DNA from: a virus
Lineage: Duplodnaviria; Caudoviricetes
Length of the DNA stretch: 64,000 nt
Virus record (IMG/VR): IMGVR_UViG_3300042477_000769
Strand: one strand, 5' to 3'
Under the pieces are notes generated by a model. It made no database searches and was not told where the DNA came from. It saw nothing but the letters and a program-made list of their open reading frames with translations. The position numbers were made by a program, and so were the translations under genes. Below, one piece after another: positions 7,819 to 47,715 of this stretch (positions within the stretch are counted from its first letter, which is position 1; each line of letters begins with the position of its first letter).

Positions 7819-8289
7819 ATGGGAGACGTAATGTCAAAATTTAGTATAGATTATTCAAGTTTAGAGAATAAAATTTATAAGAAAGCTTATAGATTGAGCG
7901 AAGTAAAAGATAAACTTGAAACTGTGGCCTTTGACATTGTTAGATTCAAGGAAGGCGATAAGGGCGCTGATTTATGGCAAGTCCAGAGTGCAGATGATGG
8001 CGAGTATATTGTGGCTTTATATCAACCAGAAGAGGACGTAAAAACGGCTTCTTGGGATGTGGTATTGAGTAAAACGGCAGGTACTTTACATGTTTCTTAT
8101 AACGGGGATCCGATTGTCAAGGTAGCAGCTAGTAAATTGGGGATTCCGGCAGCTGAGTTAGATAAGGTTCAAAGTTATTTGCCAAATAAATTGGCTACTA
8201 ATAAAAAATTAGTACAAGCATTATTGAATGAATTGCCAGAATCAACTAAAAAAGAGGTATTAAGTAAGTACCCAGAAATGTTAGCTTAA
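7819..8289 (+). CDS. Hypothetical phage protein (probable head-associated)
   Basis: Clean 156-aa ORF at the start of the head-region run; internal VKTA|S motif. Confidence 0.6.
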   Translation: MGDVMSKFSIDYSSLENKIYKKAYRLSEVKDKLETVAFDIVRFKEGDKGADLWQVQSADDGEYIVALYQPEEDVKTASWDVVLSKTAGTLHVSYNGDPIVKVAASKLGIPAAELDKVQSYLPNKLATNKKLVQALLNELPESTKKEVLSKYPEMLA

Positions 8290-8305
8290 CCTTACCATAT
8301 AGGCG

Positions 8306-9913
8306 TTGAAAATGAGCGTTGATAAATTACATAAATTAGTGAGTTCTCTAAATACATCATTATTTAATAATGAGAGACTTGCCACACCTGTATTAGCTAT
8401 TAAATTAGCGCAAGCTAATGCCGCTTATCCGGAAGACCAAACCATTGGGGCGATGCATCGGATTATTGGTAAAATGGTAGATAATGAGAACGTGTTTATT
8501 AGCAAGGGAGAGTTAAAAGCTCTAGCTAATAAATTATATTCTCGTAATACTAAATTTGCCGAACTTTTTCAAGAAGAATTAGGATTAACTTCTCCGATTG
8601 CCGAGCCAAAATATTTTCCACGAGATGAATCAACAGCCGAAGTTCGTTATGAGGTACAAGACCAGGTATTAGCTAGTGCGTTAGATAGTGTCTTTAATAA
8701 TGCGCCATTAAAGATGTATTCTAAGAAATTAGCTTCACAAGCCTTACATTCAGTGGCCTCTAGTTTAGATGCTTGGAATTTAACACCTACTTCTTTAATG
8801 GTCGATGAGGGTAATGAAAAGTTTTTAGTGATTAAAGCTAATTATGAGACTCCTAAAGGGATGACCAGTTTATTTATTCCGGTAGAAACAGTAAAGGATC
8901 AAGTATTAGAAGCTTCGGTATTTATGGGTAATGTTGGCCCGCAAGAGTTAAATCATAGTGCTATTAAATCATATTTAACGACTCAAGCCGGGACTAAATT
9001 AAAAATTAATGGATCTCAGATTTTATCGATTCTGACTACTGCTGCTTCAGAAAACAGAGAAATTAGCGATGCAGAAATTGCGTTAACTAAATTAACTGCC
9101 TCTCGTCAAGGAGAGTCTCAATTTTTTGATAATTCGATTGTGGGACAAAAAGTGGCCGAAGCAGGACGTAAAGATATTGAATTTGCTAAATCAGATGAAT
9201 TTATGTCATTTGAGAAGCAATTTACTACTCCTCAAGGCCAAGCTATTTGGCAATTTGGGGAAGAAAAAGTTAAAATTGCTCGAGAACATATTATTAGAGA
9301 GTTAAAGAGTTATGGTCATAAGAACCCACAAGTAGTTATTGCCAAGAGCGATAATAACTCTATTTTTTACCATGTCTCATTAGATGTGGGTCGGGTTGGA
9401 TTTACGGTTCCGGTAAAAATTGCCTCGGGTAAAATTATGAAACCATCTATTATGTTATGTAATGGGGCGGTGAAATCATTTAATCAAGAGAGTATTAACG
9501 AATTATATGTCAAAAATACCAGCGATTATCGTGCCGCTGCGGGCGCCTCAACTTTCTCTGGCTTAAAGCCCAGTGAAGTATTAGATAATTTGCGTACGGC
9601 CTTAGCTGAAACGAATTACGCTAAAGCCGAAGATGCGTTAAATGTCTTAGCTCATAGTGGAGATACCAAAGCATATGCTACTGGATTTAGCGTTTATATG
9701 AGCGCGTTAGCTAATAAAAATAATGAGCCTGTGCATAAATGCGCTCATGCCATTCACAATAAAACCAGTGAGCATCCCATTTGCAGTCAGACCGGATTAC
9801 CGACTCATAAAGTTTACCAAGACAAAGATGGAAATTGCCGACCGATGTATCGTAGGGGCATGGCTGAGACCTATGAAGGCGCAATTTTTAACAACTACAA
9901 AATTTTTGGATGA
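8306..9913 (+). CDS. Hypothetical protein, 535 aa, Cys/His cluster at C-terminus
   Basis: Long ORF; C-terminal HKCAH..HPICSQTG..NC. Confidence 0.65.
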   Translation: MKMSVDKLHKLVSSLNTSLFNNERLATPVLAIKLAQANAAYPEDQTIGAMHRIIGKMVDNENVFISKGELKALANKLYSRNTKFAELFQEELGLTSPIAEPKYFPRDESTAEVRYEVQDQVLASALDSVFNNAPLKMYSKKLASQALHSVASSLDAWNLTPTSLMVDEGNEKFLVIKANYETPKGMTSLFIPVETVKDQVLEASVFMGNVGPQELNHSAIKSYLTTQAGTKLKINGSQILSILTTAASENREISDAEIALTKLTASRQGESQFFDNSIVGQKVAEAGRKDIEFAKSDEFMSFEKQFTTPQGQAIWQFGEEKVKIAREHIIRELKSYGHKNPQVVIAKSDNNSIFYHVSLDVGRVGFTVPVKIASGKIMKPSIMLCNGAVKSFNQESINELYVKNTSDYRAAAGASTFSGLKPSEVLDNLRTALAETNYAKAEDALNVLAHSGDTKAYATGFSVYMSALANKNNEPVHKCAHAIHNKTSEHPICSQTGLPTHKVYQDKDGNCRPMYRRGMAETYEGAIFNNYKIFG

Positions 9914-10686
9914 TTATGAGAATAGTGAGACTGGCTAATTTATTAGAATTAAAGTATAATTTTACCTCTCAAGCCGGCCTTGCTGACATTATGGGGCAGG
10001 TAAAATCCGATTTAATTTCTGCCTATAATTTATATGTTAATAGTCAAACGGCGAAAGAGCCGGTCTTAGCTATGGTGGCTCAAATGGGAGAACCATTTAC
10101 GGTATCGTTTGTTCACAATATGAATAAAATGATTGCTAATTTGGATGTATTAGCAGAATCTCCGGCGTTATTATTTAATAGTATTAATAAGATGTTAGGG
10201 GCAATTCAAGAAGTAAAAGATGATAAAGACAAAACGGTACGTAATTTTATTCATGATTCTATTCGAGTCACGAAGCAATCGGAAAAAAATTATCGAGAAT
10301 TAGTTAAATCTAAATTTGAAACTATGTTATATCGTTTGTCGCATATTTTAGAAAAGCAAGCGAAGACTTTGAAAGTCTTTTTACCTAAAGAGGTAGAATT
10401 AGCTGGTGGTGGAGTGTTACCAGAAAGAAAAGAGTTAAGTAAAGATAAGTTACGAATGTTTTTAATGACTCCGGCTGCTCAAAAATATGGTTTACATTCG
10501 TTAGATATCTTAGAAAAAGTATTATCAGATCCAGAGTTAAAAGAAAAATTAACTACTTTAATCAATGCAGTTGATCGTGGGCATGTTCCAGCAGATGGTC
10601 CAGAAATTGCAGAAGCCACTCAAGAAATAATGGACTGGTTTAAAAGCAAACAAACTAATGCCAAACAATTTGAAGATGTGGAATGA
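9910..10686 (+). CDS. Hypothetical protein
   Basis: ORF coupled to upstream stop (ATGA); N-terminal RLANLLE..SQA|G. Confidence 0.6.
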   Translation: MIMRIVRLANLLELKYNFTSQAGLADIMGQVKSDLISAYNLYVNSQTAKEPVLAMVAQMGEPFTVSFVHNMNKMIANLDVLAESPALLFNSINKMLGAIQEVKDDKDKTVRNFIHDSIRVTKQSEKNYRELVKSKFETMLYRLSHILEKQAKTLKVFLPKEVELAGGGVLPERKELSKDKLRMFLMTPAAQKYGLHSLDILEKVLSDPELKEKLTTLINAVDRGHVPADGPEIAEATQEIMDWFKSKQTNAKQFEDVE

Positions 10687-10695
10687 GGAGCTATT

Positions 10696-11409: not shown

Positions 11410-11432
11410 TATAATTATCATTTAAGATATAG

Positions 11433-11463
11433 ATGGTCGTGAAAACTTCACGGCCATTTTTTT
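11433..11463 (+). terminator. Intrinsic terminator
   Basis: ATGGTCGTGA-AAAC-TTCACGGCCAT stem followed by T7. Confidence 0.8.
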
Positions 11464-11501
11464 ATGTGTATAAATTTGGCGATAAAATCATATTATTCTA
11501 G

Positions 11502-12260
11502 ATGAATAAGCCGGCTTATAAAAAAATATTAGAACATCCAGATAAGGATGAAATTATTTCGAAATTGGTCATTGGTATTTCTGCCAGTGATATTCATGAA
11601 TGGTTAAAAATTAAGTATAGTGCTGTGAGTGAAGCTAAATTAGTCTTATCAGAAAAACACATTAAATCTTTTAATGATAATTATTTAGATTTTTATAATG
11701 ATATGTTGCAAGACGTTGCGGCTACTAAAACTGGTATGACTAATAAACCAGAAGATGAATTAAAATTAGCGGTCAGAAATAATCCAACTTATAAAGACGC
11801 GTTACTAAAAGTAGCTAATAATGAGTTAGATATTGAACGAATTATGGCCACGATGGCGATTAATGTAGAAACTCGAATGGCTCAAGTATTTGATGAGATG
11901 ATGGAAGATCCTCGCAATATTAATACCAAAGTGGATCGATTATTTGCAGAATACGCTGATATTTTAGGTAATTTATTAGATAAATATCATAAATGGAAAG
12001 AAAAACCAGCAGCTGATCAAGTGATTCAGCATAATGTTACTTTACAGGTTGTAGATCAGCATATTTCAGTATTTCATGATGTAATTAAAGAGGTGTTGTC
12101 TCAAATGGATTTAGAGACCTCCATGTACTTTATGGAAGTGTTTGCAGAAAAAATGGCAAAATTAAAACAACCGACCCATGAAGCTGGACCCAGTCAAGAA
12201 ATGAAATTAGCTGAAGCAAAACTATTAAATGAAACTATTAACCAAAAAGTTAATCAATGA
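11502..12260 (+). CDS. Hypothetical helical protein, possibly small terminase
   Basis: N-terminal HTH-like segment and long helices; first gene after the terminator in the packaging region. Function is only a guess. Confidence 0.35.
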   Translation: MNKPAYKKILEHPDKDEIISKLVIGISASDIHEWLKIKYSAVSEAKLVLSEKHIKSFNDNYLDFYNDMLQDVAATKTGMTNKPEDELKLAVRNNPTYKDALLKVANNELDIERIMATMAINVETRMAQVFDEMMEDPRNINTKVDRLFAEYADILGNLLDKYHKWKEKPAADQVIQHNVTLQVVDQHISVFHDVIKEVLSQMDLETSMYFMEVFAEKMAKLKQPTHEAGPSQEMKLAEAKLLNETINQKVNQ

Positions 12261-14074
12261 AAACCCTGTTATCTACCTCAACATTAGATCTTCATCCTTA
12301 CCAAGATGAAGAATTAGAGCTTTCAGACGAAATGAAAGTAAAATTAGAAAAATTAATGGAATTTTTTGATGAGTATTCTATTGATTATGATAAATTCAAG
12401 TTAGATAATATTCCTACCTTAGATTTTGGTAAGAAGGATGCTTATCCTAATAATCGAGATTATTTTAATATTCCGGGTCAACATAATACTCAGAAGTGGC
12501 TAGAAACGGTAAAAAATATTTATCGAAGTGAACAACAAGGTGAAAATAGAGTGCAAGCTATTCGTCGGGCCACCAATGGTTGGCATATTATGGAAACCTT
12601 TGATTTTCTTAATTGGGTGAAGTTTTATGAGTCTGGAGATCATATGAAGTATAAATTTGCCAAATTGTGGTATGAAAATGATGATTTGGGTCCGGGTTAT
12701 TTCTTACAAATTAAACAAGATGAATCGGTTCCTGAAAAACACACCTCCGGTCAAGATATTGATTTTGCTCGAGAAACTGCCGTTTCAGATACTCAAAAAC
12801 GACAAACAATTGAAAAACAGCGTAATAAAATAATTGGTCGATTAGATTCTGCAGAAAAATTACTACGTTCTCCAGAAGGCAATATTTTCTCTGGCAAAGA
12901 ATTCCAATCTTTATTGGAAGCCATTTATGAATTAAAGAAAAAAATTCAAATGATTAATAAGGTTAGCACCTCTACTAAATTATATGAAGATATGATTATT
13001 AGAGAAGCTAATGTGTTAAATAAACGTGGATTTTATCAAGCTGCTAATTTATTAGCCTCTTATGCTCAAACTCCGGCCGCCTCGGGAGAATCGGCGACTG
13101 GTACACCCTCCGGAACAGAGGTAGTAGCTCCAGCTTCTGCAGGAGATCCTGCTGGAGCCGGTCATCCAGGAGCCCCAGGAGGATTACCTTCTACTGGACC
13201 CGGCATGGCTCCAGGAACCAGTGCGTCTGGGACAGTAAATACACCACCAGCTATTGAAGAATTTTTATCTGGTTTAAATAATGGGCAATACGCTCCTAAA
13301 GATAAGCAATTATCAGAAGACTCTTTAGAGGTAGAAGATAATTTAGAAGTTAATGAAGAAGAGTTATTAGTCACTGAAGCTCAACTTGCTACTCCTAAAT
13401 TAGAAGTGGATGAGCCAATTACTACTTCTCCAGCCCCGGCTCCTTTGGATCCTGCTCCAGTGGCCGCGCCTACCACTCCAGAGGCAGATCCAGATAAACC
13501 AGTCACTAAAGAAGAGTTAGAAATTTCAGAAGAGGATATTGAAAGAGCTAAACATAGAAAATTAACTCCTAATTTTGACACTAAAGTTAATGAAGTATTC
13601 TCTAATATTACTATTGCTGATGTAGTAGTTAAATTAGAAGATTTAGCTAAAATCTTCAAAATTAGAGAAGTGCCTCGTCAATTAGGCATTGTAGATATGA
13701 TGTTAGATAGTTTAGGATTAGCCTCTTTCTTCCCCTCCTTATCAGAAGCTACTAATAAAGCTTTAGAATCTAATAATTATATTTCTACTCGTTTAGAAGA
13801 TATTTTATCTAAATTACATGGAGCCATGGCTACCAAAGAAATTGATTTGACGGGAGAAGAACCCCCTTCCAATCCAGAAGTAGATAAAATTAAAGAAAAA
13901 TTAAAGCAAGATGAGAATAAAGATAAAGCCAGAAAACAAATGAGAAAACAACAGGAAATGTCGGAATTAGAAAATAAATCTAAAGAAACTCCTGAAATAG
14001 AAATCGAAGAAGATTTATCGGTCCCTCCTGCTCCAGTAGCACCCGTGACACCACCACCCGCCGTCAAACCATAA
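12257..14074 (+). CDS. Hypothetical protein with Pro/Ala/Gly-rich and acidic linkers
   Basis: 605-aa ORF; shared motif EANVLNKRGFYQAANLLASYAQ. Confidence 0.65.
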   Translation: MKTLLSTSTLDLHPYQDEELELSDEMKVKLEKLMEFFDEYSIDYDKFKLDNIPTLDFGKKDAYPNNRDYFNIPGQHNTQKWLETVKNIYRSEQQGENRVQAIRRATNGWHIMETFDFLNWVKFYESGDHMKYKFAKLWYENDDLGPGYFLQIKQDESVPEKHTSGQDIDFARETAVSDTQKRQTIEKQRNKIIGRLDSAEKLLRSPEGNIFSGKEFQSLLEAIYELKKKIQMINKVSTSTKLYEDMIIREANVLNKRGFYQAANLLASYAQTPAASGESATGTPSGTEVVAPASAGDPAGAGHPGAPGGLPSTGPGMAPGTSASGTVNTPPAIEEFLSGLNNGQYAPKDKQLSEDSLEVEDNLEVNEEELLVTEAQLATPKLEVDEPITTSPAPAPLDPAPVAAPTTPEADPDKPVTKEELEISEEDIERAKHRKLTPNFDTKVNEVFSNITIADVVVKLEDLAKIFKIREVPRQLGIVDMMLDSLGLASFFPSLSEATNKALESNNYISTRLEDILSKLHGAMATKEIDLTGEEPPSNPEVDKIKEKLKQDENKDKARKQMRKQQEMSELENKSKETPEIEIEEDLSVPPAPVAPVTPPPAVKP

Positions 14075-14075: not shown

Positions 14076-16427
14076 ATGAAATTACGTAATTTATTAGATC
14101 AAATGCAATCTATATCTAATAAAATCGGCTCGTCTCAGCCGATGATCTGTGGAGGTACGCCTCGGGATCAGTATATGGAAAGATTAGATCATATTGCTGA
14201 TCTAGATATTACTACTGGAGATAAAAAAGTACAATTTTTAGCGCAAGAATTTGGTAATGCATTAGCTAAACAATATGATGTCACGACTAAAATTCATGAA
14301 GATGGTCACGGAACTATTTATTTAGGTGATTTTAAAATTGATTTTTCTTCCAATTTTAATATTCCTAATATTGATAATATTTTGATTAAACAAGGTATTA
14401 CTAAGCCAACTAGTATGCAAAAAGAAATGTTTAGTCGAGATTTTACTTGTAATTCATTATTATTATCCTTAGATCTAAAAAATGTCATCGATCCTACTTA
14501 TCACGGATTACAAGATATTGATCAGAAAATAATTAGAACTTGTTTATCTCCAGAAATTACTTTATTAACTAATAAAAATAGAGTGGTTCGTGCTATTTAT
14601 TTGGCCTCCAAATTAGATTTTAATATTGATCCCAATATTATCAGCTATGTGGCGGCACATCCAGAGTCAGTAAAAATCTCGACTCCTAAATCTTTAACAG
14701 AAAAACTAAATTCTGCTTTTGAATTTAATCCGGAACGTGCCGCTTTTTATCTGACTCAGATGAATTTGTGGAATTATGTTCCTATTACTCCTGTTATGAG
14801 ACCATTTTTTATGAAAAAAAATACCACCGTTTCTTATATTTTATCTAAATATGCTGCCATTTCATCCGTGTCAGAAGCCAAACAATTGTTTGGTTTATTG
14901 GAAAATTTTACAGAAGAAGATGTAAAAAAGAAATATAAAGAATTAGTGGTGAAAAATTATCCCGATGTTAATCCTGTTAATGGTCATGAGAAAATGTTAG
15001 ATATTACTCAAGCTAAAGAAATACTATTAAAAAGCCTGACTACTCCAGAGCCTGTATTATTAAAGGAAGAAGAACCATGGAGACATTCTTATCATACGCC
15101 TGTCTCTGAATATATGGATGATGAAAAATGGGAATATTATACCAATCCAGAAATATTTAAACAATATCAAAAAGATTTTGAAGCTGAGCAAAATTATCAT
15201 CAATATGATGAGGATAGTTCAAGATTAAGAGAACAAGCAGAAGAAGATAGAATTTATAATCTCAGAGATAATATCGTCTCTATTTTAGAAAAAGTTAACC
15301 CGAATAAATTAGTAGAAGATTTTGGAGTGGATCTCGATGCCACTTCAATAAAAGAACTAGGTTTAGGTAATTTAGCCTCAAATCAAGATGGAATAGAATT
15401 AAGTGATTTAATTTCAGCGGCTATTCTCGAGATCATCTATTATGACCATCCTAAATATTTACCTAAATTATTAGAATTAGATTATTTTAAAAATGCAGTT
15501 CGTTCAAATAATTATATGAACAAGAACATGTCAGACTTGCTAAACAAGATAGATAATGAAAATATTAATAAATTATTTTTGACCAGTAAACTTTCTCTTA
15601 AAGATTTATCTAATTATCGAGATGAGCAGGGTATTATTGATGTGTTATTAAATAATCAAAATAAAGTAGTTACTGATTTATTGCAAGCTAAAAATCCACT
15701 AGATATGGTAGTTTGGTTTAGCGCTCCAGTGTTAAAAAATGTTTCTTACATCTTGCTAGACCAAGAACAAACTAAGCCGATAGTAAAATTATTAGATTTG
15801 GTTAAGAGACAATTAAACCAAAAAATAAAAACAGCTTATTTTCAAGGTGGGGGAGGAGTCAACGAACCCACTCCGAAAAAACGAAAATATAAAATAGATC
15901 CGGCCGAAGTAGTCCAGCCGAGATTTGAAGAGCCGTTTTATCGTAATTATGATCTATATAATGTTCCTGGTAAATATGGTCCGGGCACTAGAAAAAATCC
16001 TAAAAACTTAAAAGGCAAATATAAAGCTAAAAAAACTGCTCGAACTAAAGTCTTATCTAATCTCTTAAAAGTAGCCATTGACTTTCCTTCTGATAACCAA
16101 GTTAATCCAGAATTAATTACTGGTCAGCAAAATAACTTAATGGAATATCTTAATCCGGCCGGAGGATATTTAGATAAATATCTTCCTGATAATGATTTGG
16201 AAGATAAAGACCCCACCAAATTAAACTTTGGTCGAGATTATGCCGATCAACCCACAGGGCCTAAAATCGATAATATTGAAAAATTATTAGAACAATATTT
16301 GCCGACTGATTTGTATGGATTACCAGATGGAGTCGATGTCACAGAAGAAGAATTAGACCAACCTAATGATATTAATCCATTTTATGGTACCTTAGGCCCT
16401 AATAGTTTGATTCATCAACGCTACTAA
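14076..16427 (+). CDS. Divergent CCA/poly(A)-polymerase-family nucleotidyltransferase fused to a J-domain-like segment and a long C-terminal extension
   Basis: Motif A GGTPRD..DLD; motif B EMFSRDFT; motif D region TNKNRVVRA; J-like EAKQLFGL..EDVKKKYKELVVKNYPD..EKMLDITQAKEIL. Confidence 0.75.
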   Translation: MKLRNLLDQMQSISNKIGSSQPMICGGTPRDQYMERLDHIADLDITTGDKKVQFLAQEFGNALAKQYDVTTKIHEDGHGTIYLGDFKIDFSSNFNIPNIDNILIKQGITKPTSMQKEMFSRDFTCNSLLLSLDLKNVIDPTYHGLQDIDQKIIRTCLSPEITLLTNKNRVVRAIYLASKLDFNIDPNIISYVAAHPESVKISTPKSLTEKLNSAFEFNPERAAFYLTQMNLWNYVPITPVMRPFFMKKNTTVSYILSKYAAISSVSEAKQLFGLLENFTEEDVKKKYKELVVKNYPDVNPVNGHEKMLDITQAKEILLKSLTTPEPVLLKEEEPWRHSYHTPVSEYMDDEKWEYYTNPEIFKQYQKDFEAEQNYHQYDEDSSRLREQAEEDRIYNLRDNIVSILEKVNPNKLVEDFGVDLDATSIKELGLGNLASNQDGIELSDLISAAILEIIYYDHPKYLPKLLELDYFKNAVRSNNYMNKNMSDLLNKIDNENINKLFLTSKLSLKDLSNYRDEQGIIDVLLNNQNKVVTDLLQAKNPLDMVVWFSAPVLKNVSYILLDQEQTKPIVKLLDLVKRQLNQKIKTAYFQGGGGVNEPTPKKRKYKIDPAEVVQPRFEEPFYRNYDLYNVPGKYGPGTRKNPKNLKGKYKAKKTARTKVLSNLLKVAIDFPSDNQVNPELITGQQNNLMEYLNPAGGYLDKYLPDNDLEDKDPTKLNFGRDYADQPTGPKIDNIEKLLEQYLPTDLYGLPDGVDVTEEELDQPNDINPFYGTLGPNSLIHQRY

Positions 16428-17593: not shown

Positions 17594-18487
17594 ATGTTAA
17601 AATCTATCGCTCAAGAATTAGTAATTGTTGATCCTCCTTCGCAGGAACCGCCGTTAATGTTAGAAATGAGCGATTCCTCACCAGAAGATGGTCTGGATCC
17701 GGTAGAAGTATATGATAATTCTATAACTAATCTTCATATTGTCATGGAATTACCTGGAGCCCCACCTGGCACTCAAGACCCTGAACCAGTCTTAGAGGTC
17801 TCGGAAGAAGAACCAGAAGAAAAACTATCTGAGAAAGAATCAGATGAAAATGATGCTAAAGCAGCTAAAAATGAAAAATGGAACTGGGCTAAACATGGGC
17901 CTACGGGATTTATTGCTTGGGTCAAGGAGCGATGTGATGATGTGCCGAAACATTCGGGTTATGATTCGGCCGGTTTAGAGCGCGCTATTGCCTACCTAGA
18001 GCGGCTCGATAGCGAAGTCTCCAAAGCCATGCGCCTCGACATTGATGGAGAATTAGACGCCAATCAAGTAGAAAAAGTGAGAGCGGTCATTGATAACGGG
18101 ACAGAGCGCTTATTAGATCGTTTAGATAAAGTAAAAAAGAATAAGAAAAAGAGTCGTAAAAAGAAAGCCGATGTCACGGATAGTTTGGTGAAAGAGGCTC
18201 AAAAAATTACTGGAGTGCAAGGCGTATTTGTGACGGTACCCTTGCTAATTTCTAGAATAGCTAGAGTATGTATTAATGGTATGGTCTCTGGTGGCCATGA
18301 TATTGAAGATTTATATGAGCGACAAGTTAAGTTCTATAAATTAAATGATCGTGAACAAGCAGAAGTAATGCAACTATTATCTGATATGGGTTATGCTTTA
18401 AAGCAAGACCGTGGATTTATGCCAGAAGATGATTTACATATTGACGATAGTAGCAATATGGATTTTGCCGCTAACTATAAGGGTTAA
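17594..18487 (+). CDS. Hypothetical protein (probable head-associated)
   Basis: SD GAGG upstream; MLKSIA|Q, ENDA|K and VKEA|Q motifs. Confidence 0.65.
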   Translation: MLKSIAQELVIVDPPSQEPPLMLEMSDSSPEDGLDPVEVYDNSITNLHIVMELPGAPPGTQDPEPVLEVSEEEPEEKLSEKESDENDAKAAKNEKWNWAKHGPTGFIAWVKERCDDVPKHSGYDSAGLERAIAYLERLDSEVSKAMRLDIDGELDANQVEKVRAVIDNGTERLLDRLDKVKKNKKKSRKKKADVTDSLVKEAQKITGVQGVFVTVPLLISRIARVCINGMVSGGHDIEDLYERQVKFYKLNDREQAEVMQLLSDMGYALKQDRGFMPEDDLHIDDSSNMDFAANYKG

Positions 18488-37070: not shown

Positions 37071-37078
37071 GAGTAACG

Positions 37079-37603
37079 ATGGCAAAACCCAGCATAGAAC
37101 ACGAATTAGTCTTAGGAATGCAACAAGAATTGCAACCTTATGAAAAAAAGCAAGCAATGACCAATTTGGTCAAAGCGGCAGAATATCTTAATTCTGCTAT
37201 GGAAATATTGGAAGATGCTGGGTTAACCGCTAAAGCAGATCGAGTATTAAGAATCTTAGCTAAAATTGCTCAAGAACAAGATATTAATCAGGCTAAACTG
37301 TCTTCAGATGAAGAATTTTATCAAAAAATAATGAAGTGGTTAGATGATCCAAAAACTCCAGTAGACCCAGAACATCCACAACCCGGAGAAGAATTATCAT
37401 TTAACAGTCTATTAACCGAGCCAGCCAAAGATGAATTAACTTTTCAAAGTTTATTAACGCAAAAAAATGATCCTAAACCCTCCAATGATGACTTATTATT
37501 TAAAAGTATCGCCATGGAATTAGATGAAGATGATGAGTTAGTAAATTTACAAGATGAAGATCAAGAAAGCGATGAAGACGATTTATTTGAAGATGCAGAT
37601 TAA
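37079..37603 (+). CDS. Helical-motif protein with acidic tail
   Basis: SD GGAG upstream; shared motif followed by AKIA|Q and DINQA|K. Confidence 0.7.
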   Translation: MAKPSIEHELVLGMQQELQPYEKKQAMTNLVKAAEYLNSAMEILEDAGLTAKADRVLRILAKIAQEQDINQAKLSSDEEFYQKIMKWLDDPKTPVDPEHPQPGEELSFNSLLTEPAKDELTFQSLLTQKNDPKPSNDDLLFKSIAMELDEDDELVNLQDEDQESDEDDLFEDAD

Positions 37604-39275: not shown

Positions 39276-40550
39276 ATGACTTTTAAACACATTAAGTTTG
39301 AAGATTCTGCCATCATGCGTTCATTAGAGAAATTAGCGTTTGATAAGGGATTAGTAAAGCCAGAAACTTTAAACAAAACAGCATCAGTTAAAAGCCCGGA
39401 GCCCACTTCTGGTAGTTTGGTGGAGCAGGTTATTTACTTATGTGCGGAGATGAAGAAATCTGGCTTAGAAAAAGAGGCTCGAGATTTAGAGCATAAATTA
39501 CTTAATTATAAAAGAGCTAATACTTTGTATCAAACTTCTCAAGAAACGGGAGAAGATTTGGTTGATCAAGCTCATCCTAAGGGAAGTTATCACATGCCGG
39601 GATTAGGGGAGCTAGGGATCATTGAAACGGTTATTGATCAACAATTAAAAAGTTTAAAAATGGTGGAGAAGAAGCCAACGGGTAAATTAGCTAATAGAGA
39701 GATTATTGACGCAGTGAAAGTTATTTTAGCTGAAGAAAATAAAACATTAGAAGAAGTAAAAAAAGAATTAGGCTCTTTAGTAGCCTCTATTAAAGAGCGA
39801 ATAGAAAAAGTTGGTAACATAGCTTCACAATATACGACTGAACACCTATCTTCACAAATTGAGAAAGCGCCGCTGATGTTAGCTGGTCCCCTGGGACTAG
39901 GCGCGCTCTGGCTTGACGAACCAACAAAAAAAATTTCTAATTTTGTTTCTATTATTAGAAATAATTTAAGCGTATATAATGCTAATAATTTTAAAAAAGC
40001 TAAAAATGTTTATCATAATTTTTATGATTTCTTGAAGCCTGGGTTCCAGAAAGGAATTTCGGAAGATGGTTGGAGCATAGTAGAACCAATAATGAATCCA
40101 ATTGGCTCTGATTTAACTAAAGCGATAGAGTTAGTGAATAAAATAAATTTATTAGAATCAAAGGAGGCGCCAGAAGAAAAAAAACCAGAAAACGAAGAAA
40201 AAGTAAAAGTTTTTACAAACCAGCAAAAAAAGCACAATATCTGGATTGAATTTTTAGGCGAATACAGTAAAATGCTTAGTAAAATGGATAAGATCCATAA
40301 AGAATTAGGAGATACGCCCGAGGTGAAAAACACAAAACTTTGGATTAAACAAAAAATAGAAAAAATGCAGATGAAAGCTTCTGCTTGTTTGGAAAACATA
40401 AAGAACAATGAAATAACAGAAGATCAATTTCAAGATCAAATTCATGAATTTGAAAAGTTTTTAAATCATATTGACACTGAGCTTAAAAAACTACCTGTAT
40501 ACTCTAAGGTTAATTCTAACTTGCTACAACAAATAAAAAACTGGTTTTGA
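39276..40550 (+). CDS. Hypothetical protein (probable internal head protein)
   Basis: SD GAGG; NKTA|S and YKRA|N; N-terminus weakly similar to 44505..45722. Confidence 0.6.
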   Translation: MTFKHIKFEDSAIMRSLEKLAFDKGLVKPETLNKTASVKSPEPTSGSLVEQVIYLCAEMKKSGLEKEARDLEHKLLNYKRANTLYQTSQETGEDLVDQAHPKGSYHMPGLGELGIIETVIDQQLKSLKMVEKKPTGKLANREIIDAVKVILAEENKTLEEVKKELGSLVASIKERIEKVGNIASQYTTEHLSSQIEKAPLMLAGPLGLGALWLDEPTKKISNFVSIIRNNLSVYNANNFKKAKNVYHNFYDFLKPGFQKGISEDGWSIVEPIMNPIGSDLTKAIELVNKINLLESKEAPEEKKPENEEKVKVFTNQQKKHNIWIEFLGEYSKMLSKMDKIHKELGDTPEVKNTKLWIKQKIEKMQMKASACLENIKNNEITEDQFQDQIHEFEKFLNHIDTELKKLPVYSKVNSNLLQQIKNWF

Positions 40551-40554: not shown

Positions 40555-41685
40555 ATGTTGAAACGTAATATTATACAAGAAATAAACAAAATAGCCCAAG
40601 AATATGACTCGATTCCTCTTCCTTCTACTCAAAAGAGCAGTCCTAGCGTGTCATCTAAACCTACTGGCTATGTAGCTAATAATGATATTAGTCGCATGCA
40701 AAAAGCTATTCAAAATTTTGCAGCAGCAGCGGTTAAATATAAAACAGTACCTGTCAATAAAAACGGTAAACTAGTAAAAGAAGTTGATAAAAACGATACC
40801 AGAAGAGACTTTAATGATTTTTTGGTAGAACAATTTGCTAATAATGCTGAATTACGAGGCGATGAATACTCTCCAGATCCGGGAGATACGACCCTGTCAT
40901 CTAAACAACCTACAGATCTAATTCAATTAGATAATGTTATTGATCAATTACGTAGAACAGGATCTCAAATAAATGAAAAATTACCAGATGGTAGCTGGGA
41001 AACTCGCACTAATAATGCAGTTCGTAATGTGTATGCTTTAGCTGTAGCATTAGTAGAAGCTAATGAAGCATTGGGTGGAACTTCAATTAATGATCGCCGA
41101 GTATTTACCAGATCAGATTTAGCTGCATTTAAAGCAGCTATTCCTCCTTATAAAGATCCTGTAGCAGAAGGCGGTTTAACTAAAGAAAATCTCTCTCAAA
41201 GAGCAGTGACTATTACTAAATTAGTTAATAAACTAACTGAGTTTTATGATTTTTATTCTAAAACTATTTTAGATCATCCGGCCTATAAAAGCTATATAGA
41301 CCAGACAAAAGCTTTATTGACAGTAGAACCCGGCAAAGATCCGACTATGTTAAATGAAGCAGATCAAAAGCGTTTAGAACAATCAAAAGATATTCGTTTA
41401 CCATTTTTACGAGTCTTAGATAAAGATAATCGTCCCATTAATATTGATGGTAATGTAGCATTAGACTATTTACAAAGTAAACAAGGATTACAAAAATTAA
41501 TGGTAGATTTTTTAAAATATCAACCTAATGAAGTTAATAGCTTTCCTGCTATGAGAAAAACGGTTAATAATTTAATTGATCGTATTAATAAAATAATTGC
41601 TACTAATCGTCAATCATTAAATCCAATAATTGATAAAAATCAAATAAAAGAAATATCATTCGATCCAAACTCTAATATAGCCTAA
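40555..41685 (+). CDS. Hypothetical protein
   Basis: N-terminal INKIA|Q. Confidence 0.6.
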   Translation: MLKRNIIQEINKIAQEYDSIPLPSTQKSSPSVSSKPTGYVANNDISRMQKAIQNFAAAAVKYKTVPVNKNGKLVKEVDKNDTRRDFNDFLVEQFANNAELRGDEYSPDPGDTTLSSKQPTDLIQLDNVIDQLRRTGSQINEKLPDGSWETRTNNAVRNVYALAVALVEANEALGGTSINDRRVFTRSDLAAFKAAIPPYKDPVAEGGLTKENLSQRAVTITKLVNKLTEFYDFYSKTILDHPAYKSYIDQTKALLTVEPGKDPTMLNEADQKRLEQSKDIRLPFLRVLDKDNRPINIDGNVALDYLQSKQGLQKLMVDFLKYQPNEVNSFPAMRKTVNNLIDRINKIIATNRQSLNPIIDKNQIKEISFDPNSNIA

Positions 41686-41696
41686 AGGTAAACTCC

Positions 41697-43385
41697 ATGT
41701 CTTTTATTTATGAAAATAAACTGTTATTACAAGCTTTATTAGAGGCGGGCGGAGCTTTGGAAAAAAAAGCTCAAGATAATGAACAATCTAAACAAAATAT
41801 TTTAGAAAATTTTCGAGACTTTAATCAAAATCAAGAAATAGTAAAGGCTTTACCTGATTATGATTTGGCATTAAAATTATTGTATAATTTACAACGAGAA
41901 TTAAAAGATCCTAAAGCTCCCCCGGCAGGAATTCCAATTGGAACTCAAAGCGGTAGTACTCAAATAGAAGCTAATACCGCTAATTTTAGAACTTTAGGAG
42001 ATTTTTTAAACTGGGCGGCAGCTAACAAATTAACTTGGAAAAATCAAAGATTTGCTTGGACTAAAGAAGAAGCTGATAAAGATCGTTCGATTATTAATAA
42101 TAATTGGACTTTTACCTCTTTACCATTTGATAGAAATGATCGATCTTTAGATCGTCAACCAATAAGAACCATAGCTTATGCAAATAAAGATGCACTAATA
42201 GAATATTTAGCTGCTTTAAGAGATAGTCCAGAAACTCAAAAAAATAATGTATTAAAATTTATGTTAGCCAGTTTAATTGGAGAAGCAAACGGTTTTCTTA
42301 GAATACAAGGTGAGAAACCCATTGAAACAAAAACTAGTCCCAAACCGGCAGATAATTTAGATCCTAATTTAATTGTAGATATCTTACCCGCTATTTTAGG
42401 CAATGATACTATCAATGAGAATTTAAATAATGCACCGTTTAATTTATTCAAAGCCGACAATGTTAATGCTTTAACTGTTGAAGATTTAAAAAGTAAATCA
42501 AATTTTACTAATTGGCTGAGTAATCGACAAATAAAAGTCAACTTAGGAGGTAAAAATCCAACTACTAAAGTTGTCAAAGTATTTGACCCAGAATCTGGAG
42601 ATCCTTGTTTAGCTGTTCATATTTTATATAAACGTGCATTACATTTAAGAAATGCCGCTGAAGGACATGATCAATTTGTTACTAATTATAGTAAAGCTAT
42701 TAATTTATATATTAATGCTGTAACTGCTTTTGGTCGAGAATTTACAGATAAAAATGGTCATCCCTGCACCGTATTATCTCCTACTTCGGATACTAATGCC
42801 AGAGTTTATCCTGGTGGTAGTGGCTCTCCTGCTGGAGGAGCTGGACCTGCAACTACTACTGGACTCGTCCCTAGTAATCCTCAAGTCAAATCTCAAATGT
42901 TAAAAAATCTAGTGCAATATATGCCGCTTAATTTGCACACTATTAATTTAGATGACATACTATCATTTTTTAATGCTTATGTCAACTTTTTAGAAAAAAC
43001 TTCTGGAGCGGAAGAGGAATTTGTTAAAACAGCACAGGCCAGTGTAATCTCTATTATTCAAGAAATTAAAAAAGTAACAGTCTTGCCACAATTAGTATTC
43101 CCATTAAATGGTGGGTCTGAAACTGTAGTGAAGTGGATTAGAAATCCATTATTTAGTTACACGCCATTTATCCAAAACTTATCAGAAATATTAGTTACTA
43201 CTTTTAGTGTAATTCAAAAATTTTATGATACCTATGGTAGAGTTCGATCGTCAGAAGATAGAGCAGAGTTTAATTCTGAACAACAAAATATTGTTAAAGG
43301 TCAAACGCCTATCTATAACTCTAATATGCGAGTTATTAATCGTTGGCTCAATGAGGCGGGAAGAGTTCAAGGATTTAAAAAATGA
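41697..43385 (+). CDS. Hypothetical protein
   Basis: N-terminal LEKKA|Q. Confidence 0.6.
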   Translation: MSFIYENKLLLQALLEAGGALEKKAQDNEQSKQNILENFRDFNQNQEIVKALPDYDLALKLLYNLQRELKDPKAPPAGIPIGTQSGSTQIEANTANFRTLGDFLNWAAANKLTWKNQRFAWTKEEADKDRSIINNNWTFTSLPFDRNDRSLDRQPIRTIAYANKDALIEYLAALRDSPETQKNNVLKFMLASLIGEANGFLRIQGEKPIETKTSPKPADNLDPNLIVDILPAILGNDTINENLNNAPFNLFKADNVNALTVEDLKSKSNFTNWLSNRQIKVNLGGKNPTTKVVKVFDPESGDPCLAVHILYKRALHLRNAAEGHDQFVTNYSKAINLYINAVTAFGREFTDKNGHPCTVLSPTSDTNARVYPGGSGSPAGGAGPATTTGLVPSNPQVKSQMLKNLVQYMPLNLHTINLDDILSFFNAYVNFLEKTSGAEEEFVKTAQASVISIIQEIKKVTVLPQLVFPLNGGSETVVKWIRNPLFSYTPFIQNLSEILVTTFSVIQKFYDTYGRVRSSEDRAEFNSEQQNIVKGQTPIYNSNMRVINRWLNEAGRVQGFKK

Positions 43386-44446
43386 ATCAGCAAGAAATTA
43401 GCTTCTATACTGATTGCTTTATTGTAGAATCTTTGCTACAAAATCATTCTCTAATTAAAATAGCCCAAGAAGGCGGACCGTTAACAGAATTGATTAATAA
43501 AGTAAAAGATTATTTCGGTCAACATATTGATCCGAATGATCCTGTCAGCAGCTTATTAGGAATATTAACTCCAGGATTAATTTTTAGCTTTTTAGGTTAT
43601 GGCTGGTTAGGCGGATTAATTGGCTTAGCCATCAACGTATTTCATGTAGATGTCAAAGGTATTATTTCCTCTATTATTAATAAAATTAAAGGATTAATTA
43701 CTGGTAATAAACCAACTAATTCTGAAAAAGTTGATGAAATTGTGGCTAGCTCAGTTCAAGAATTTGATAAACCTATTAGTGAAACTAGTAATGATACGAG
43801 TGTCATGGAAGACACTTTAAATAAGTTATTAAAGTCTACTTCTACTGTTCAGTTATCTAAAGATATTAGATTAGTTAAATTAGCTATTGTACAACCTATT
43901 AAAACTGCTAAATGGGGCGGCGGATTAGCAGCTCGACAAAAAACCACCATGACTTTATTAGCAAAAGTATTAGGTTGGATTTTTAAAGTTATTTTAGCTT
44001 CGGCTGGCTTATTGGTAGCTGGAGATGTAGTGAATAAATTTGTCGGCCGCCCTAACGCTTTTGATGGCGGCTTAAAAGATGGCAAGCCAATTGCTGCCAC
44101 TCCAGTACCCTTAGTAACTTCCAAACAAACTAAATTTCCAAAGCAATCTAATTATATAGAAGAACAATTTAATTCCGGAGATACTAATTGGGTGGAAAGC
44201 GTCGCTAACAATGATCCTTCTATTACGGCGATGTTAATCCAATTTGCTAAAGACGTGTATAACGGATTAGAGGGTTACGAAAATATTATTCGCACTTCTC
44301 CTGCGTTTGAAATTATTAAAAATAGAATAATTACCTACAATAGAACCACTCCCGGACAAACGATGGTCTTTATTCCTAAATATTTTAAGTCTAAAAAGAA
44401 AATTGTAGATTTGTTTATTGATGATGTAGCAGAAAAAGCTACTTAA
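43382..44446 (+). CDS. Hypothetical protein with two hydrophobic segments (possible membrane-inserting ejection protein)
   Basis: IKIA|Q; LLGILTPGLIFSFLGYGWLGGLIGLAINVF and LLAKVLGWIFKVILASAGLLVAG. Confidence 0.55.
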   Translation: MNQQEISFYTDCFIVESLLQNHSLIKIAQEGGPLTELINKVKDYFGQHIDPNDPVSSLLGILTPGLIFSFLGYGWLGGLIGLAINVFHVDVKGIISSIINKIKGLITGNKPTNSEKVDEIVASSVQEFDKPISETSNDTSVMEDTLNKLLKSTSTVQLSKDIRLVKLAIVQPIKTAKWGGGLAARQKTTMTLLAKVLGWIFKVILASAGLLVAGDVVNKFVGRPNAFDGGLKDGKPIAATPVPLVTSKQTKFPKQSNYIEEQFNSGDTNWVESVANNDPSITAMLIQFAKDVYNGLEGYENIIRTSPAFEIIKNRIITYNRTTPGQTMVFIPKYFKSKKKIVDLFIDDVAEKAT

Positions 44447-44504
44447 TTAAGGCATAGCTCGACATATTATTGATTACATTGTGTAACTTTTAATTTCTAG
44501 ATGG

Positions 44505-45722
44505 ATGAGTATAACTATGACCAGAAGCCAAATTTTTGATAATTTTATAAAAATTTCACAAGAAAAAGGTCTAATTGCTAATGATTCTTCTGAGGCCAAA
44601 AAGAAATTAGAAGAAACTAAACGAGCCGATTCTTTAGATGCTAAAGCAATCAGTCAATTATATGGGGTAAAAAATCCCGCTCCTAAAGATATGGAGTATC
44701 AACAAAATATTATTGAAATTGCTCATAAAAAACCAGTTATTATTGGTCCCTCTTATGATAAATTAAATGCCTTAGTAGAAAATAATCAAGAGCGTCAAAA
44801 TATCTTATTGAGAATTGTTAACAAAACTCCGGATGGATTATCTACTCAACGTAAATATGCAGAGCAAGAATTAACTTTAACCTTAGTTCAATTAGCTAAT
44901 AATTTTGATAATACTGATCAAGATAAATTAAGAAAACTAGCCGATTCTTGTTTATTAAAATTATCGTCTCAACAAACGAAAAAGTCTTTGCAGAAAAAAG
45001 CTGCAATATTGATACCTATTGCTATTGCAGCTGCCACTATTGGTGCTATTTATGCTCATCAACATATTGCAGATGCAGATGAAGGATTAGAAGAAAATTA
45101 TAAAAATTTAGTCAAACAATTAGATGATTTCTTAGATGACAATAACTCTGGTTTAGGTATTACCGGTCATGAATATAGTCAAGAAATGTTATCAGATATT
45201 AGAGAATTTAAAGATAGACTAGCTGATTTTATGCAATTATACCGATCTTTAAATGAAGTTATTAGAGAATTAGAAAAGCCCAGAGACGCTAAAGAATTAA
45301 TGGAATTATCTAAACAACCAAAAACTCATACCGTAATCAATGCCGTTAAAAAATTAAGAGAATTAGCAACTAATATGAGTACCTTTATGGATACTATTTA
45401 TAAGAACTTTAGCTCCAGTATGTATAAAAATCGACATACTAAAAGTAAAGGTGTAGTCGATAAATTATTAGAAACTAGTATTTTAGGTGTGAGCTTAAAA
45501 GGCGGTCAGACCGGATTAATAGCTGATGATTTTCAAGATGTTATTAATGCGATGAATACTTTTAGAACTAGCATTGCTGAATTATTAAAAGTTATGGAGG
45601 CGGCAGGGTCTATTGAAGAAGACAGTTTAGATAAATTATCGGCATCTTTAGATAAAGCAAAAGAAGATTTTGGCTCTCCGTTAGATTTAAGTGGACCCCC
45701 TAAACTTTTGTCGACAGATTAA
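44505..45722 (+). CDS. Hypothetical protein with a hydrophobic segment after a KxA motif
   Basis: QKKA|AILIPIAIAAATIGAIYAH followed by coiled coil. Confidence 0.6.
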   Translation: MSITMTRSQIFDNFIKISQEKGLIANDSSEAKKKLEETKRADSLDAKAISQLYGVKNPAPKDMEYQQNIIEIAHKKPVIIGPSYDKLNALVENNQERQNILLRIVNKTPDGLSTQRKYAEQELTLTLVQLANNFDNTDQDKLRKLADSCLLKLSSQQTKKSLQKKAAILIPIAIAAATIGAIYAHQHIADADEGLEENYKNLVKQLDDFLDDNNSGLGITGHEYSQEMLSDIREFKDRLADFMQLYRSLNEVIRELEKPRDAKELMELSKQPKTHTVINAVKKLRELATNMSTFMDTIYKNFSSSMYKNRHTKSKGVVDKLLETSILGVSLKGGQTGLIADDFQDVINAMNTFRTSIAELLKVMEAAGSIEEDSLDKLSASLDKAKEDFGSPLDLSGPPKLLSTD

Positions 45723-45829
45723 AATAATTTTCATAAAATCTGGCAATAAACAAATATGTAATTAAATTTTGTAAGTAAGGTGTAAGTTTCTATCGAATAA
45801 ATCGATATGTAAAAATTTAGGAAAATAAC

Positions 45830-46534
45830 ATGGCATTAAAATTATTACAACCTGGTACTCAACCATTAGGCCAATTTGACGGCTTAGACTCTGAAGTATT
45901 AACCTTAAAAGGTGGAGAAGTTGTTACGTTAGTAGCAACTGCCGTTCCTCCTGGTGATAAAGCTGCTTCTGATTCTTTTGACGGTTATGTTAACACTGGT
46001 TCGTCTGCTAGACGCCCAGTGGTCACCAAAACCTTAGACGCTTATTCGCGTCCTTTAATGTTAGCTGACGATGGTATCTCTGGTTACGGAACCTTATTCG
46101 GTTCGGTAGTTGGTGGAACTGTTGGACAAAATACCACGGGCGCTGTATTAGGCCCTCACACTGCTAGCGGTTCTGGCAAAGTTACTTGCTGGGATAAACC
46201 CGGTTTATATGCCGTGTCGTTAGATGCTTGTGATCCTAACGCTTCCACTGGTTTACAACCCACCAATACCACAGTCGCTGTGGGTTCTCCCTTATTCTAT
46301 ACTACGGCTGGTTTATTAACTCCTACGGCAGCTTCTGCTCCTACGGGTAGCACGGCTGATGGTAGCACTGGTAAAACAGTGTGTGGTCGCTTCGTTGACT
46401 TCGAGACCAACGGTTCTTTAGTCAATACGCCTAACAGATTAGTAGCCGCTTTGAACAGTCCTTCGGGTAGCTCCGTTGGTCCTCGTACCTTTGCTTTCGC
46501 TACATTCTTCTTTGGTGAATTATCTAAGGTCTGA
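45830..46534 (+). CDS. Capsid decoration / minor capsid protein (putative)
   Basis: SD AGGA; Gly/Thr/Ser-rich beta protein immediately upstream of MCP; C-ending codons enriched as in MCP. Confidence 0.55.
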   Translation: MALKLLQPGTQPLGQFDGLDSEVLTLKGGEVVTLVATAVPPGDKAASDSFDGYVNTGSSARRPVVTKTLDAYSRPLMLADDGISGYGTLFGSVVGGTVGQNTTGAVLGPHTASGSGKVTCWDKPGLYAVSLDACDPNASTGLQPTNTTVAVGSPLFYTTAGLLTPTAASAPTGSTADGSTGKTVCGRFVDFETNGSLVNTPNRLVAALNSPSGSSVGPRTFAFATFFFGELSKV

Positions 46535-46555
46535 TCTTAGTTAATTAAGAGTATC

Positions 46556-46585
46556 AAAAAAGCCGAGTTTATTCTCGGCTTTTTT
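46556..46585. terminator. Bidirectional intrinsic terminator
   Basis: AAAAAAGCCGAG-TTTATT-CTCGGCTTTTTT. Confidence 0.85.
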
Positions 46586-46701
46586 ATTTTATCGAAAAAT
46601 ATTTTCTATCTTTATAGCAATAATTACTTATAACAATATCACACAATAATTGTGTGGCTGATTTAGTTCGGCAAACAATTCTTTTATACTTTGGAGAAAA
46701 C

Positions 46702-47715
46702 ATGAATATGTTTAATAACAAGGGCGAATTGAACGCAAGTTCTTTAAAAGACGCTCTACAATCACTGGCTAAATATGCTTCAGTGTTGGAAGAAAATCAA
46801 CCCTCAAACATGGGTTTCGCAGGTCAACCATCTTTAAGCGATGACAAACGTGATGAATTAATTTCTCGCGCTATTAATACTCAAGATGGTAAAGTGGCCT
46901 TAGCTCAAGCTATGGCGAATCCGATTCGCCGAAATTTGGACTACCACGGCATTGCTCGTCGAGCATTAGTGGTAGACCCACTTCCTATGGGAGCCATGCC
47001 CACTTATGACCGAGATATTGATGTGGCTGCTGTTGTTATTTCTAGCAATGGTACCGGACCAGAGTCTCGTGTTTTCGGTGACCGCGTAGTTGTTCCAGAG
47101 TTTGAAATTTTCGCCAACCCCACCGTTAGAATTGCCGAAGTTAAAAGACGCCGATTCAATGTTATTGATCGTGCAGTTCAAAAAGCTCGTCAAGAAATCA
47201 TGGCTCAAGAAGACGCCAACGTGTTTGCCGCATTAGATGCTGCTGCTAGCGTTGAAAACTCTTTAGTCGATGTCGCTGATGCCGGCTTATTAAAGAGAGA
47301 CCTCGTTGAAATTAAACAACAAATCGATCGTTGGGACTTAGTCACCACCAAATACTTCATGAATATCAATGAATTCACTGATATTCTCAAGTGGGGTAGC
47401 GGTGGTGGTCAAGGTGTCGGTGGTGGTGACTTCGATCCTGTAACCATGAGAGAAGTTCTACAAACCGGCTTGTATGCCCATATTTGGGGTACGGATATTA
47501 TGGTGTCGAAGATTGTCCCCCCGGGCACGATCTACGGCGCTGCCGATCCCGAGTTCGTTGGTGTAATGCCAATTCGCCAAGACATCGAAGTGTTGCCGGC
47601 TGACGAACCGAAGCAATTAAAGCTAGGCTGGGTAGTTTCCGAAATCATCGGTATCGCCATCGTCAACCCTCGTGGTTGTGCGGCTGGGCGCAAGAGCGTA
47701 GTTATCGGAGCCTGA
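46702..47715 (+). CDS. Major capsid protein (HK97 fold), 337 aa
   Basis: SD GGAG 5 nt before ATG 46702; E-loop/spine-helix pattern VVVPEFEIFANPTV..RFNVIDRAVQKARQEIMAQEDANVF; P-domain FMN..HIWGTDIMVSKIVPPGTIY; followed by a terminator. Confidence 0.88.
   Translation: MNMFNNKGELNASSLKDALQSLAKYASVLEENQPSNMGFAGQPSLSDDKRDELISRAINTQDGKVALAQAMANPIRRNLDYHGIARRALVVDPLPMGAMPTYDRDIDVAAVVISSNGTGPESRVFGDRVVVPEFEIFANPTVRIAEVKRRRFNVIDRAVQKARQEIMAQEDANVFAALDAAASVENSLVDVADAGLLKRDLVEIKQQIDRWDLVTTKYFMNINEFTDILKWGSGGGQGVGGGDFDPVTMREVLQTGLYAHIWGTDIMVSKIVPPGTIYGAADPEFVGVMPIRQDIEVLPADEPKQLKLGWVVSEIIGIAIVNPRGCAAGRKSVVIGA

Follow-up and report, generated by a model that had tools for sequence, protein, structure and literature searches.

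Hydrophobic-x-Lys-x-Ala as a candidate prohead-protease processing signal on head proteins of a phage G-like megaphage

Herpesvirus assemblin cleaves its R and M sites at the consensus (V/L/I)-x-A↓S, and gp4 of HK97, a protease of the assemblin fold, makes its final cut after a Lys. The code of T4 is I/L-x-E and comes with capsid-targeting leaders (PMC12991175, PMC9026906). SPN3US uses A-x-E (PMC10052503), which has the same P3-x-P1 form as the T4 code (PMC12991175). In phiKZ and SPN3US, a single short motif is the trimming site of numerous head and ejection proteins, among them the portal, and it has been used to predict propeptides (PMC10052503, PMC5694885). For PaBG, only a mass loss of about 20% of the major capsid protein (MCP) is reported. 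Here we describe a window of 64,000 nucleotides (nt), the whole stretch analysed of IMG/VR record IMGVR_UViG_3300042477_000769 (Duplodnaviria; Caudoviricetes), which contains the head module of an uncultured phage G-like megaphage of low GC content (about 35%). The head region of this window (7819-47715) carries a recurrent motif, hydrophobic(P5)-x-Lys(P3)-x-Ala/Gly/Ser(P1), that is probably the signal for processing by the prohead protease which the phage itself encodes, an assemblin-fold enzyme that forms the N-terminal domain of a protease-scaffold polyprotein. The leaders that end in this motif would often also be capsid-targeting, similar to the capsid-targeting sequence (CTS) of T4. The arrow marks the proposed scissile bond throughout, and all motif sites of the window given below, as well as the genes of the MCP, the portal and the polyprotein, lie on the + strand.

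A sequence-only reading of this DNA had proposed a looser motif, [K/N]-x-A↓(Q/S/A), as a maturation-protease code, and all strings that it cited (23/23) are present at the proteins it named. Expected counts were obtained from within-protein shuffles, with 24 genes outside the head region as comparison. As written, the loose motif ([KN].A[QSA]) is weakly enriched, with 40 observed and 28.1 expected occurrences (P=0.02), but its sharper K-x-A core is real: K.AQ occurs 13 times compared to 3.6 expected, KIAQ five times compared to 0.2, and K.AQ is absent (0) from the 24 genes outside. Orthologues were collected in four IMG/VR scans that yielded about 130 related loci, across which the MCP is 87-96% identical and the orphan head proteins are 20-56% identical. 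From the orthologue alignments we derived the refined pattern [LIVMFY].K.[AG], which is found 65 times in the head region with 42.4 expected (P<0.0005). A refined site lies within the first 30 amino acids (aa) of 10/33 head-region proteins, where 3.1 are expected (P=0.001), and in the genes outside the head region the refined pattern shows no enrichment over the shuffles. With composition controlled in this way, the motif shows enrichment, an N-terminal position and conservation among homologues; a lack of enrichment or conservation had been named as the outcome that would speak against a protease code.

Conservation is the second line of evidence. The Lys and the small residue two positions on are near-invariant (86-100% of orthologues) in families with identities of 26-45%, and 13 of the previously cited K-x-A sites, in 11 proteins, are kept at this level. 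Conserved spaced pairs were counted over the N-terminal 90 residues in 15 divergent families, and K-x-[A/G] was found at 15 sites, spread over 10 families. The best of the other first residues reached 5, and when the residue after K-x was varied, Ala gave 11 and the next residue 5. There is no BLAST-detectable paralogy among the main motif carriers, and g36852 and g37079 are the sole paralogous pair. A motif without function of its own, caused by chance, composition or shared ancestry, would be in line with proteins rich in Lys and Ala, with the bare enrichment of the loose motif and with the failure of several cited sites in the conservation test. The shuffle tests, the spaced-pair control, the absence of detectable paralogy of the main carriers and the independent recurrence in phage G described below contradict this explanation, and we regard it as extremely improbable.

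The sites that failed narrow the motif. The N-x-A half of the proposed code does not hold, as DINEAD is part of a conserved phosphatase domain and the other three strings are not conserved; this class (DINEA↓D, DINQA↓K, DMNDA↓K, ENDA↓K) was dropped together with the scaffold string LRRA↓S, which has no conserved P3 among orthologues. For MLKSIA↓Q, the A-Q is kept in orthologues but the Lys is not. IKQA↓S and IKSA↓A are not retained in the four orthologues available, and for VKTA↓S the K-T-A/S is retained, in four orthologues only.

At the proposed P3, Lys is found in 98% of sites, and the proposed P1 is Ala in 88%, Gly in 8% and Ser in 4%, values that are partly circular given that the sites had been anchored on these residues. 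The residue two positions before Lys was not used for site choice and is L/F/I/M in about 90% of sites. Hydrophobic positions recur at P8, P5 and P1, and Arg seldom substitutes for Lys in orthologue sites. The conserved block stops at Ala; the residue after it varies (Gln 32%, Ser 15%, followed by Ala, Lys, Pro, Gly and Asp), as does often the length, and Pro/Gly-rich linkers occur. Leaders of 5-36 residues ending in the motif are present on eight or more non-paralogous proteins. The minimal leaders are exactly five residues long, and their start Met takes the hydrophobic position, as in M-Q-K-T-A and, in relatives, M-N-K-K-S and M-D-K-R-S, which suggests that nothing further upstream is needed. 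The Gln or Glu after Ala was considered as the true P1 (A-Q-E↓, or Y-F-Q↓G like 3C/TEV sites) and rejected as a general rule, since only 32% of sites have Gln after Ala and in many of them neither Gln nor Glu is nearby.

The same signal could also be read with the scissile bond after Lys, as hydrophobic(P3)-x-Lys(P1)↓x-Ala(P2'), with Ala as a prime-side requirement. Such a cut is in line with the final cut of HK97 gp4 after Lys, its hydrophobic P3 also matches that of herpes assemblin (V/L/I-x-A), and it would remove the problem of an invariant Pro after Ala in the protease (aa 43-44, see below). The hydrophobic residue two positions before Lys, present in the large majority of sites, would then mirror the hydrophobic P3 of T4 (I/L-x-E, PMC12991175). 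In form, cuts after Lys and after Ala fit equally well. However, it would be unusual for P2' to be a small residue with hardly any variation, basic S1 pockets usually take both Lys and Arg although Arg is rare here, and the conserved block ends at Ala and not at Lys. We consider the bond after Lys unlikely and place it in the following after the small residue.

The motif is found on the MCP, the portal, the protease-scaffold polyprotein and many orphan proteins, like the substrates of the T4 and phiKZ proteases. The MCP (46702-47715; PHROG major head protein, E 1e-76) was listed as an open reading frame (ORF) of 46654-47715 that begins at GTG 46654. Judged from the ribosome-binding context (GGAG, 5 nt, ATG), with which the orthologues agree, the true start is most likely ATG 46702. 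The site L-A-K-Y-A (46765-46779; P1 at ORF aa 42) is kept in 63/63 orthologues and forms the end of a 26-aa N-terminal extension. The MCP of phage G (gp27) is 53% identical from ORF residue 61 onward and lacks this extension, which fits a dispensable, removable propeptide. The portal site Q-N-K-F-A↓Q (22759-22773, aa 78-82) lies in the N-terminal part, upstream of the stretch homologous to the phage G portal, and K-x-(A/G/S)-Q is found in all orthologues shown.

The protease-scaffold polyprotein (32365-35964, 1199 aa) is a PHROG head maturation protease and is 33% identical to phage G gp19. Its protease core covers about aa 45-246. The AlphaFold2 (AF2) model of the core, with a predicted local distance difference test score (pLDDT) of 74, matches T4 gp21 (5jbl) best in VIA-align (Z 8.6, 129 residues aligned). 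The second match is the varicella-zoster virus (VZV) protease with Z 7.9, and the proteases of VZV, human cytomegalovirus (HCMV) and Kaposi's sarcoma-associated herpesvirus (KSHV) span Z 5.5-7.9. In Foldseek against the PDB the top three matches are T4 gp21, but they are weak (E 0.02), and for this reason the fold call rests on VIA-align. By this comparison of models, the domain is of the T4 gp21/herpes assemblin beta-barrel fold, and the phage-encoded prohead protease that the sequence-only reading had assumed is thus present. In the alignment, H132, S134 and S183 (in V-S-M-G) are invariant, and H132 and S183, 51 residues apart, are candidates for the catalytic His and Ser, which have a spacing of about 50-70 residues in assemblin-fold proteases. 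The gene lies between portal and MCP in the head module, the position of assemblin-fold prohead proteases; the order portal (22528), protease (32365), MCP (46702) is the same as for gp14, gp19 and gp27 of phage G. A Cys/His-rich insert (C193, C196, C207 and His; about aa 190-215) follows V-S-M-G, is invariant in 30 relatives and, from its sequence, may be a metal site.

Conserved sites in the polyprotein have P1 at aa 6, 36 and 43 (32368-32382, 32458-32472, 32479-32493), at aa 266, 410 and 507 (33148-33162, 33580-33594, 33871-33885) and at aa 660, 832 and 842 (34330-34344, 34846-34860, 34876-34890). They are retained in 25-28 of 26-28 orthologues, and six of them add to those cited before. The sites at aa 36 and 43 lie just before the core, aa 266 is at the end of the helix after the core, and aa 410 and 507 are at repeated modules. 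The site directly before the core reads L-K-K-I-A-P-K-A-E-D-F-L-Y-F, with V-V-K-I-A-P-K-E-D-D-F-L-Y as its counterpart in phage G gp19. An in-frame internal start (33562-33594, + strand; GAGG, 5 nt, ATG) predicts a nested product. Its 11-residue leader would close with N-K-K-G, immediately followed by the YYQGAGGVNEPTP module, and in orthologues both the Met and the K-x-G of this leader are invariant.

A strongly conserved module, Y-(Y/F)-Q-G-G-G-G-V-N-E-P-T-P-x3-K-Y, stands behind several internal K-x-(A/G/S) sites. Its copies lie at 33595-33640 and 33886-33930 in the polyprotein and at 15837-15880 in the nucleotidyltransferase-DnaJ protein g14076 (14076-16427). In the latter, the site K-I-K-T-A↓Y (15822-15836) is followed by YFQGGGGVNEPTP, the same module as in the polyprotein. 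In relatives (ORFs of loci L105, L106, L116 and L117) the module is found right behind five-residue N-terminal leaders of other proteins, and aromatic-aromatic-Q-[G/A] in related loci is preceded by K-x-small in 49/103 cases.

A third group of carriers are head-module proteins, for the most part orphans; the motif-bearing orphans have no Pfam or PHROGs match. The 412-aa g26663 (26663-27901) starts with M-E-K-I-A↓Q (26663-26677), a five-residue leader with P1 at aa 5, which is present in 30/30 orthologues, mostly as M-Q-K-T-A-Q, at a mean identity of 44%. Tandem sites are found in the 424-aa g39276 (39276-40550; sites within 39324-39383), with L-E-K-L-A↓F at aa 17-21 and L-N-K-T-A↓S at aa 32-36, each in 26/26 orthologues of 31% mean identity. 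In the 376-aa g40555 (40555-41685), I-N-K-I-A↓Q (40582-40596, aa 10-14) is kept in 36/42 orthologues with a mean identity of 26%. It is the sole conserved feature of the N-terminal region and is followed by a Pro/Gly-rich linker of variable length. The 562-aa g41697 (41697-43385) carries L-E-K-K-A↓Q (41757-41771, aa 21-25) in 30/32 orthologues, also at 26% mean identity, with P1 switching between Ala and Gly. For the 354-aa g43382 (43382-44446), L-I-K-I-A↓Q (43451-43465, aa 24-28) is kept in 50/50 orthologues, and K26 belongs to only 11 invariant columns in an alignment of 35 sequences. A complex prediction of the protease core (aa 40-250) with the first 45 residues of g43382 gave a score of 0.02 and speaks neither for nor against the proposed recognition. 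The 405-aa orphan g44505 (44505-45722; sites within 44544-45002) has F-I-K-I-S↓Q at aa 14-18, kept in 50/51 orthologues and as K-I-A in 49/51, and L-Q-K-K-A↓A at aa 162-166, kept in 51/53 and directly preceding a hydrophobic segment. Long hydrophobic, membrane-like segments are present in both 43382-44446 and 44505-45722, as would be expected, by analogy, of proteins that are ejected and become inserted in the host envelope.

The small paralogues g36852 (36852-37070) and g37079 (37079-37603), with sites within 36939-37270, carry F-K-R-L-A↓Q (aa 30-34; 35/36 orthologues) and L-A-K-I-A↓Q (aa 60-64; 16/17 orthologues), respectively. Internal sites occur in two larger proteins. In the acidic 297-aa g17594 (17594-18487), L-V-K-E-A↓Q (18185-18199, aa 198-202) comes after a Lys-rich stretch and is kept in 15/15 orthologues, and in the 605-aa orphan g12257 (12257-14074), L-N-K-R-G↓F-Y-Q (13016-13030, aa 254-258) retains basic-x-small in 14/15. 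Downstream of the MCP, the 260-aa g53773 (53773-54555) has L-K-K-V-A↓F (53932-53946, aa 54-58), a site that separates a variable N-terminal part from a strongly conserved body, with K-x-A in 54/54 orthologues at a mean identity of 43%. The sites in g53773 (outside 7819-47715), g12257 and g36852 and at aa 18 of g44505 had escaped the sequence-only reading.

The motif could instead be the central part of an amphipathic helix that stays uncleaved and docks head proteins on the scaffold, the protease or the inner capsid wall, purely as a signal for targeting or assembly. The hydrophobic periodicity P8/P5/P1 is what such a helix would show, in two families conservation extends beyond the motif (K-I-A-Q-E-K-G-L and K-V-A-K-E-K-G-L), and many sites lie in the helical scaffold part of the polyprotein. 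Yet leaders of five residues in this clade, or eight in phage G, are too short for a helix, the variable linkers start right after Ala, and the phage G MCP lacks the entire extension, in line with a dispensable, removable propeptide. We judge an uncleaved docking helix improbable.

Independent evidence comes from Bacillus phage G, the closest cultured relative (MCP gp27 53%, protease gp19 33%, portal 39% identity). In its 497-kb genome (NC_023719), 15 otherwise unrelated ORFs begin with M-[K/R]-R-L-x-[K/R]-K, with 0.1 expected from shuffles. They are scattered over the genome, e.g. at 11937, 16055, 28218, 73330, 147654, 245994, 254652 and 446709. The next residue is Ser in 6, Ala in 6 and Gly in 1 (13/15), so that the leader comprises eight residues, and its L-I-K-K-A matches hydrophobic-x-K-x-small. 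Related sites are R-L-K-K-T-A in gp20, R-K-K-L-A in gp21, three V-K-x-A sites in the protease, and A-K-Q-A and R-K-M-A in the portal, just before the conserved body. Several of the leader-bearing ORFs have a (F/Y)-H-G-T stretch soon after the leader. The shared H-G-T had given the impression of ADP-ribosyltransferase-like proteins, but this assignment is unsupported: five phage G proteins with the M-K-R-L leader have no Pfam match.

The recurrence in phage G also bears on the enzyme that reads the signal. It might be a protease or peptidase of the host, another phage protease or a lysine-modifying enzyme, as co-occurrence is what ties the motif to the prohead protease and phage G also encodes ClpP/ClpX and other proteases (PMC12484599). 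On the other hand, phage G grows on a Firmicute, while two relatives of the protease labelled as metagenome-assembled genomes (MAGs) are named Cytophagaceae and Flammeovirgaceae. With a motif common to phages of probably different host phyla, a phage-encoded reader is more economical than a host enzyme. The motif is also concentrated on the proteins that prohead proteases classically process, namely MCP, portal, scaffold and the protease itself, and a different enzyme as reader is very unlikely.

One signal on MCP, portal, scaffold, protease and orphans, its position at leader ends, an upstream specificity and a protease in the same module together follow the pattern of T4, phiKZ and SPN3US and point to processing by the prohead protease. 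We propose that the signal terminates short N-terminal leaders, between 5 and about 80 residues long and often amphipathic helices, on MCP, portal and a dozen orphan head-module proteins, and that within the polyprotein it marks the borders between segments. As the procapsid matures, the protease would trim the leaders and cut the polyprotein into pieces, similar to the cleavage by T4 gp21 at L/I-x-E and by phiKZ gp175 at S/A/G-x-E. Entry of the proteins into the procapsid would probably also be aided by the leaders. We infer from this pattern the cleavage itself, the role of this protease as its agent, the bond after the small residue and the packaging of the tagged proteins.

Besides the partial circularity of the Lys and Ala frequencies, several points weigh against this proposal. 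An invariant Pro follows Ala right at the pre-core site (aa 43-44; 32479-32496), and a bond before Pro is seldom cut by serine proteases; K-I-A-P might act as a pseudo-substrate that resists cleavage and not as a cut site. The P8/P5/P1 spacing of hydrophobic residues also fits a plain amphipathic binding helix, and in g44505 the aa 166 site may be no more than the basic flank of the membrane-like segment. Mycobacteriophage Alice has a homologous protease and shows no clear K-x-A code, and Rctr197k, a distant relative with a homologous protease, has only traces of it. All N-termini used here are predictions from sequence, and from these we infer the cut after Ala.

For the phage G-like megaphage clade as a whole, we tentatively suggest a prohead-protease code hydrophobic-x-Lys-x-Ala↓ that is undescribed for phages and that, in phage G, might have shrunk to an eight-residue universal address label, M-K-R-L-I-K-K-A/S. 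Our literature search found no paper on the motif, on the MKRLIKK leader or on a phage prohead protease cutting after Ala, with an earlier description in phage G proteomics possible; no cleavage motif is mentioned in the 2025 phage G paper. Orphan genes make up most of the head modules of megaphages. The code, once validated, would place about a dozen orphan genes here, and about 25 in phage G, in the capsid interior or the ejected cargo, and would define mature protein boundaries for structural work. It would widen the specificity of assemblin-fold proteases from Glu (T4, phiKZ) to a herpes-like small P1 or to Lys. If the proposal is true, the packaged and injected protein arsenal of roughly 0.5-Mb phages could be read from sequence alone, and addition of the tag could load foreign proteins into these capsids. 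As phage G is cultivable and has already been analysed with LC-MS/MS (liquid chromatography coupled to tandem mass spectrometry), a quick test is possible.

The remaining genes of interest in the window are the large terminase (20142-22472), which carries an intein, the portal (22528-26601), which carries two, and an array at 686-4798 of about nine small paralogous genes with repeats of the type Y-Y-W-N-G-x-x-H-R-E-D-G-P-A. The repeats of this array presumably belong to a MORN-like type.

Known systems can be compared as follows. In mycobacteriophage Alice, gp90 (42678-47213), a 1511-aa polyprotein annotated as hypothetical, contains the homologous protease domain directly upstream of the MCP, but no K-x-A code is visible. 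HK97 gp4 (MEROPS S78) shares the position of the protease gene between portal and MCP, and the MCPs are of the same broad family. Herpes assemblin (MEROPS S21) has the same fold class, a protease fused to the scaffold and nested in-frame scaffold starts, and Ala would be P1 in both systems. In contrast to the assemblin consensus, P3 here is Lys (98%) and not aliphatic, P1' is variable and not Ser, and there are dozens of substrates instead of two sites. The giant phages phiKZ (gp175) and SPN3US (gp245), with the code A/S/G-x-E↓, likewise have many head proteins with one short motif. Their small residue is at P3 with Glu at P1, whereas here the small residue would be P1, and beyond the fold class there is no sequence relationship with the protease described here.

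T4 gp21 (MEROPS S77) is the best structural match of the protease domain (Z 8.6). In both systems a short N-terminal leader ending in a P3-x-P1 signal is found on the MCP, the scaffold and unrelated cargo, and the protease has sites of its own. As in T4, the leaders are short, common to unrelated proteins and end in one motif, which would here be the motif of the protease itself. The signal differs, being basic-x-small here and aliphatic-x-Glu in T4, with an extra hydrophobic position two residues further upstream in this phage. Unlike gp21, the protease continues into some 950 aa of fused scaffold-like sequence, and its Ser motif is followed by a Cys/His insert, as far as its sequence tells. 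Taken together, the locus would represent a prohead-protease and leader system of known type, but with a different code.

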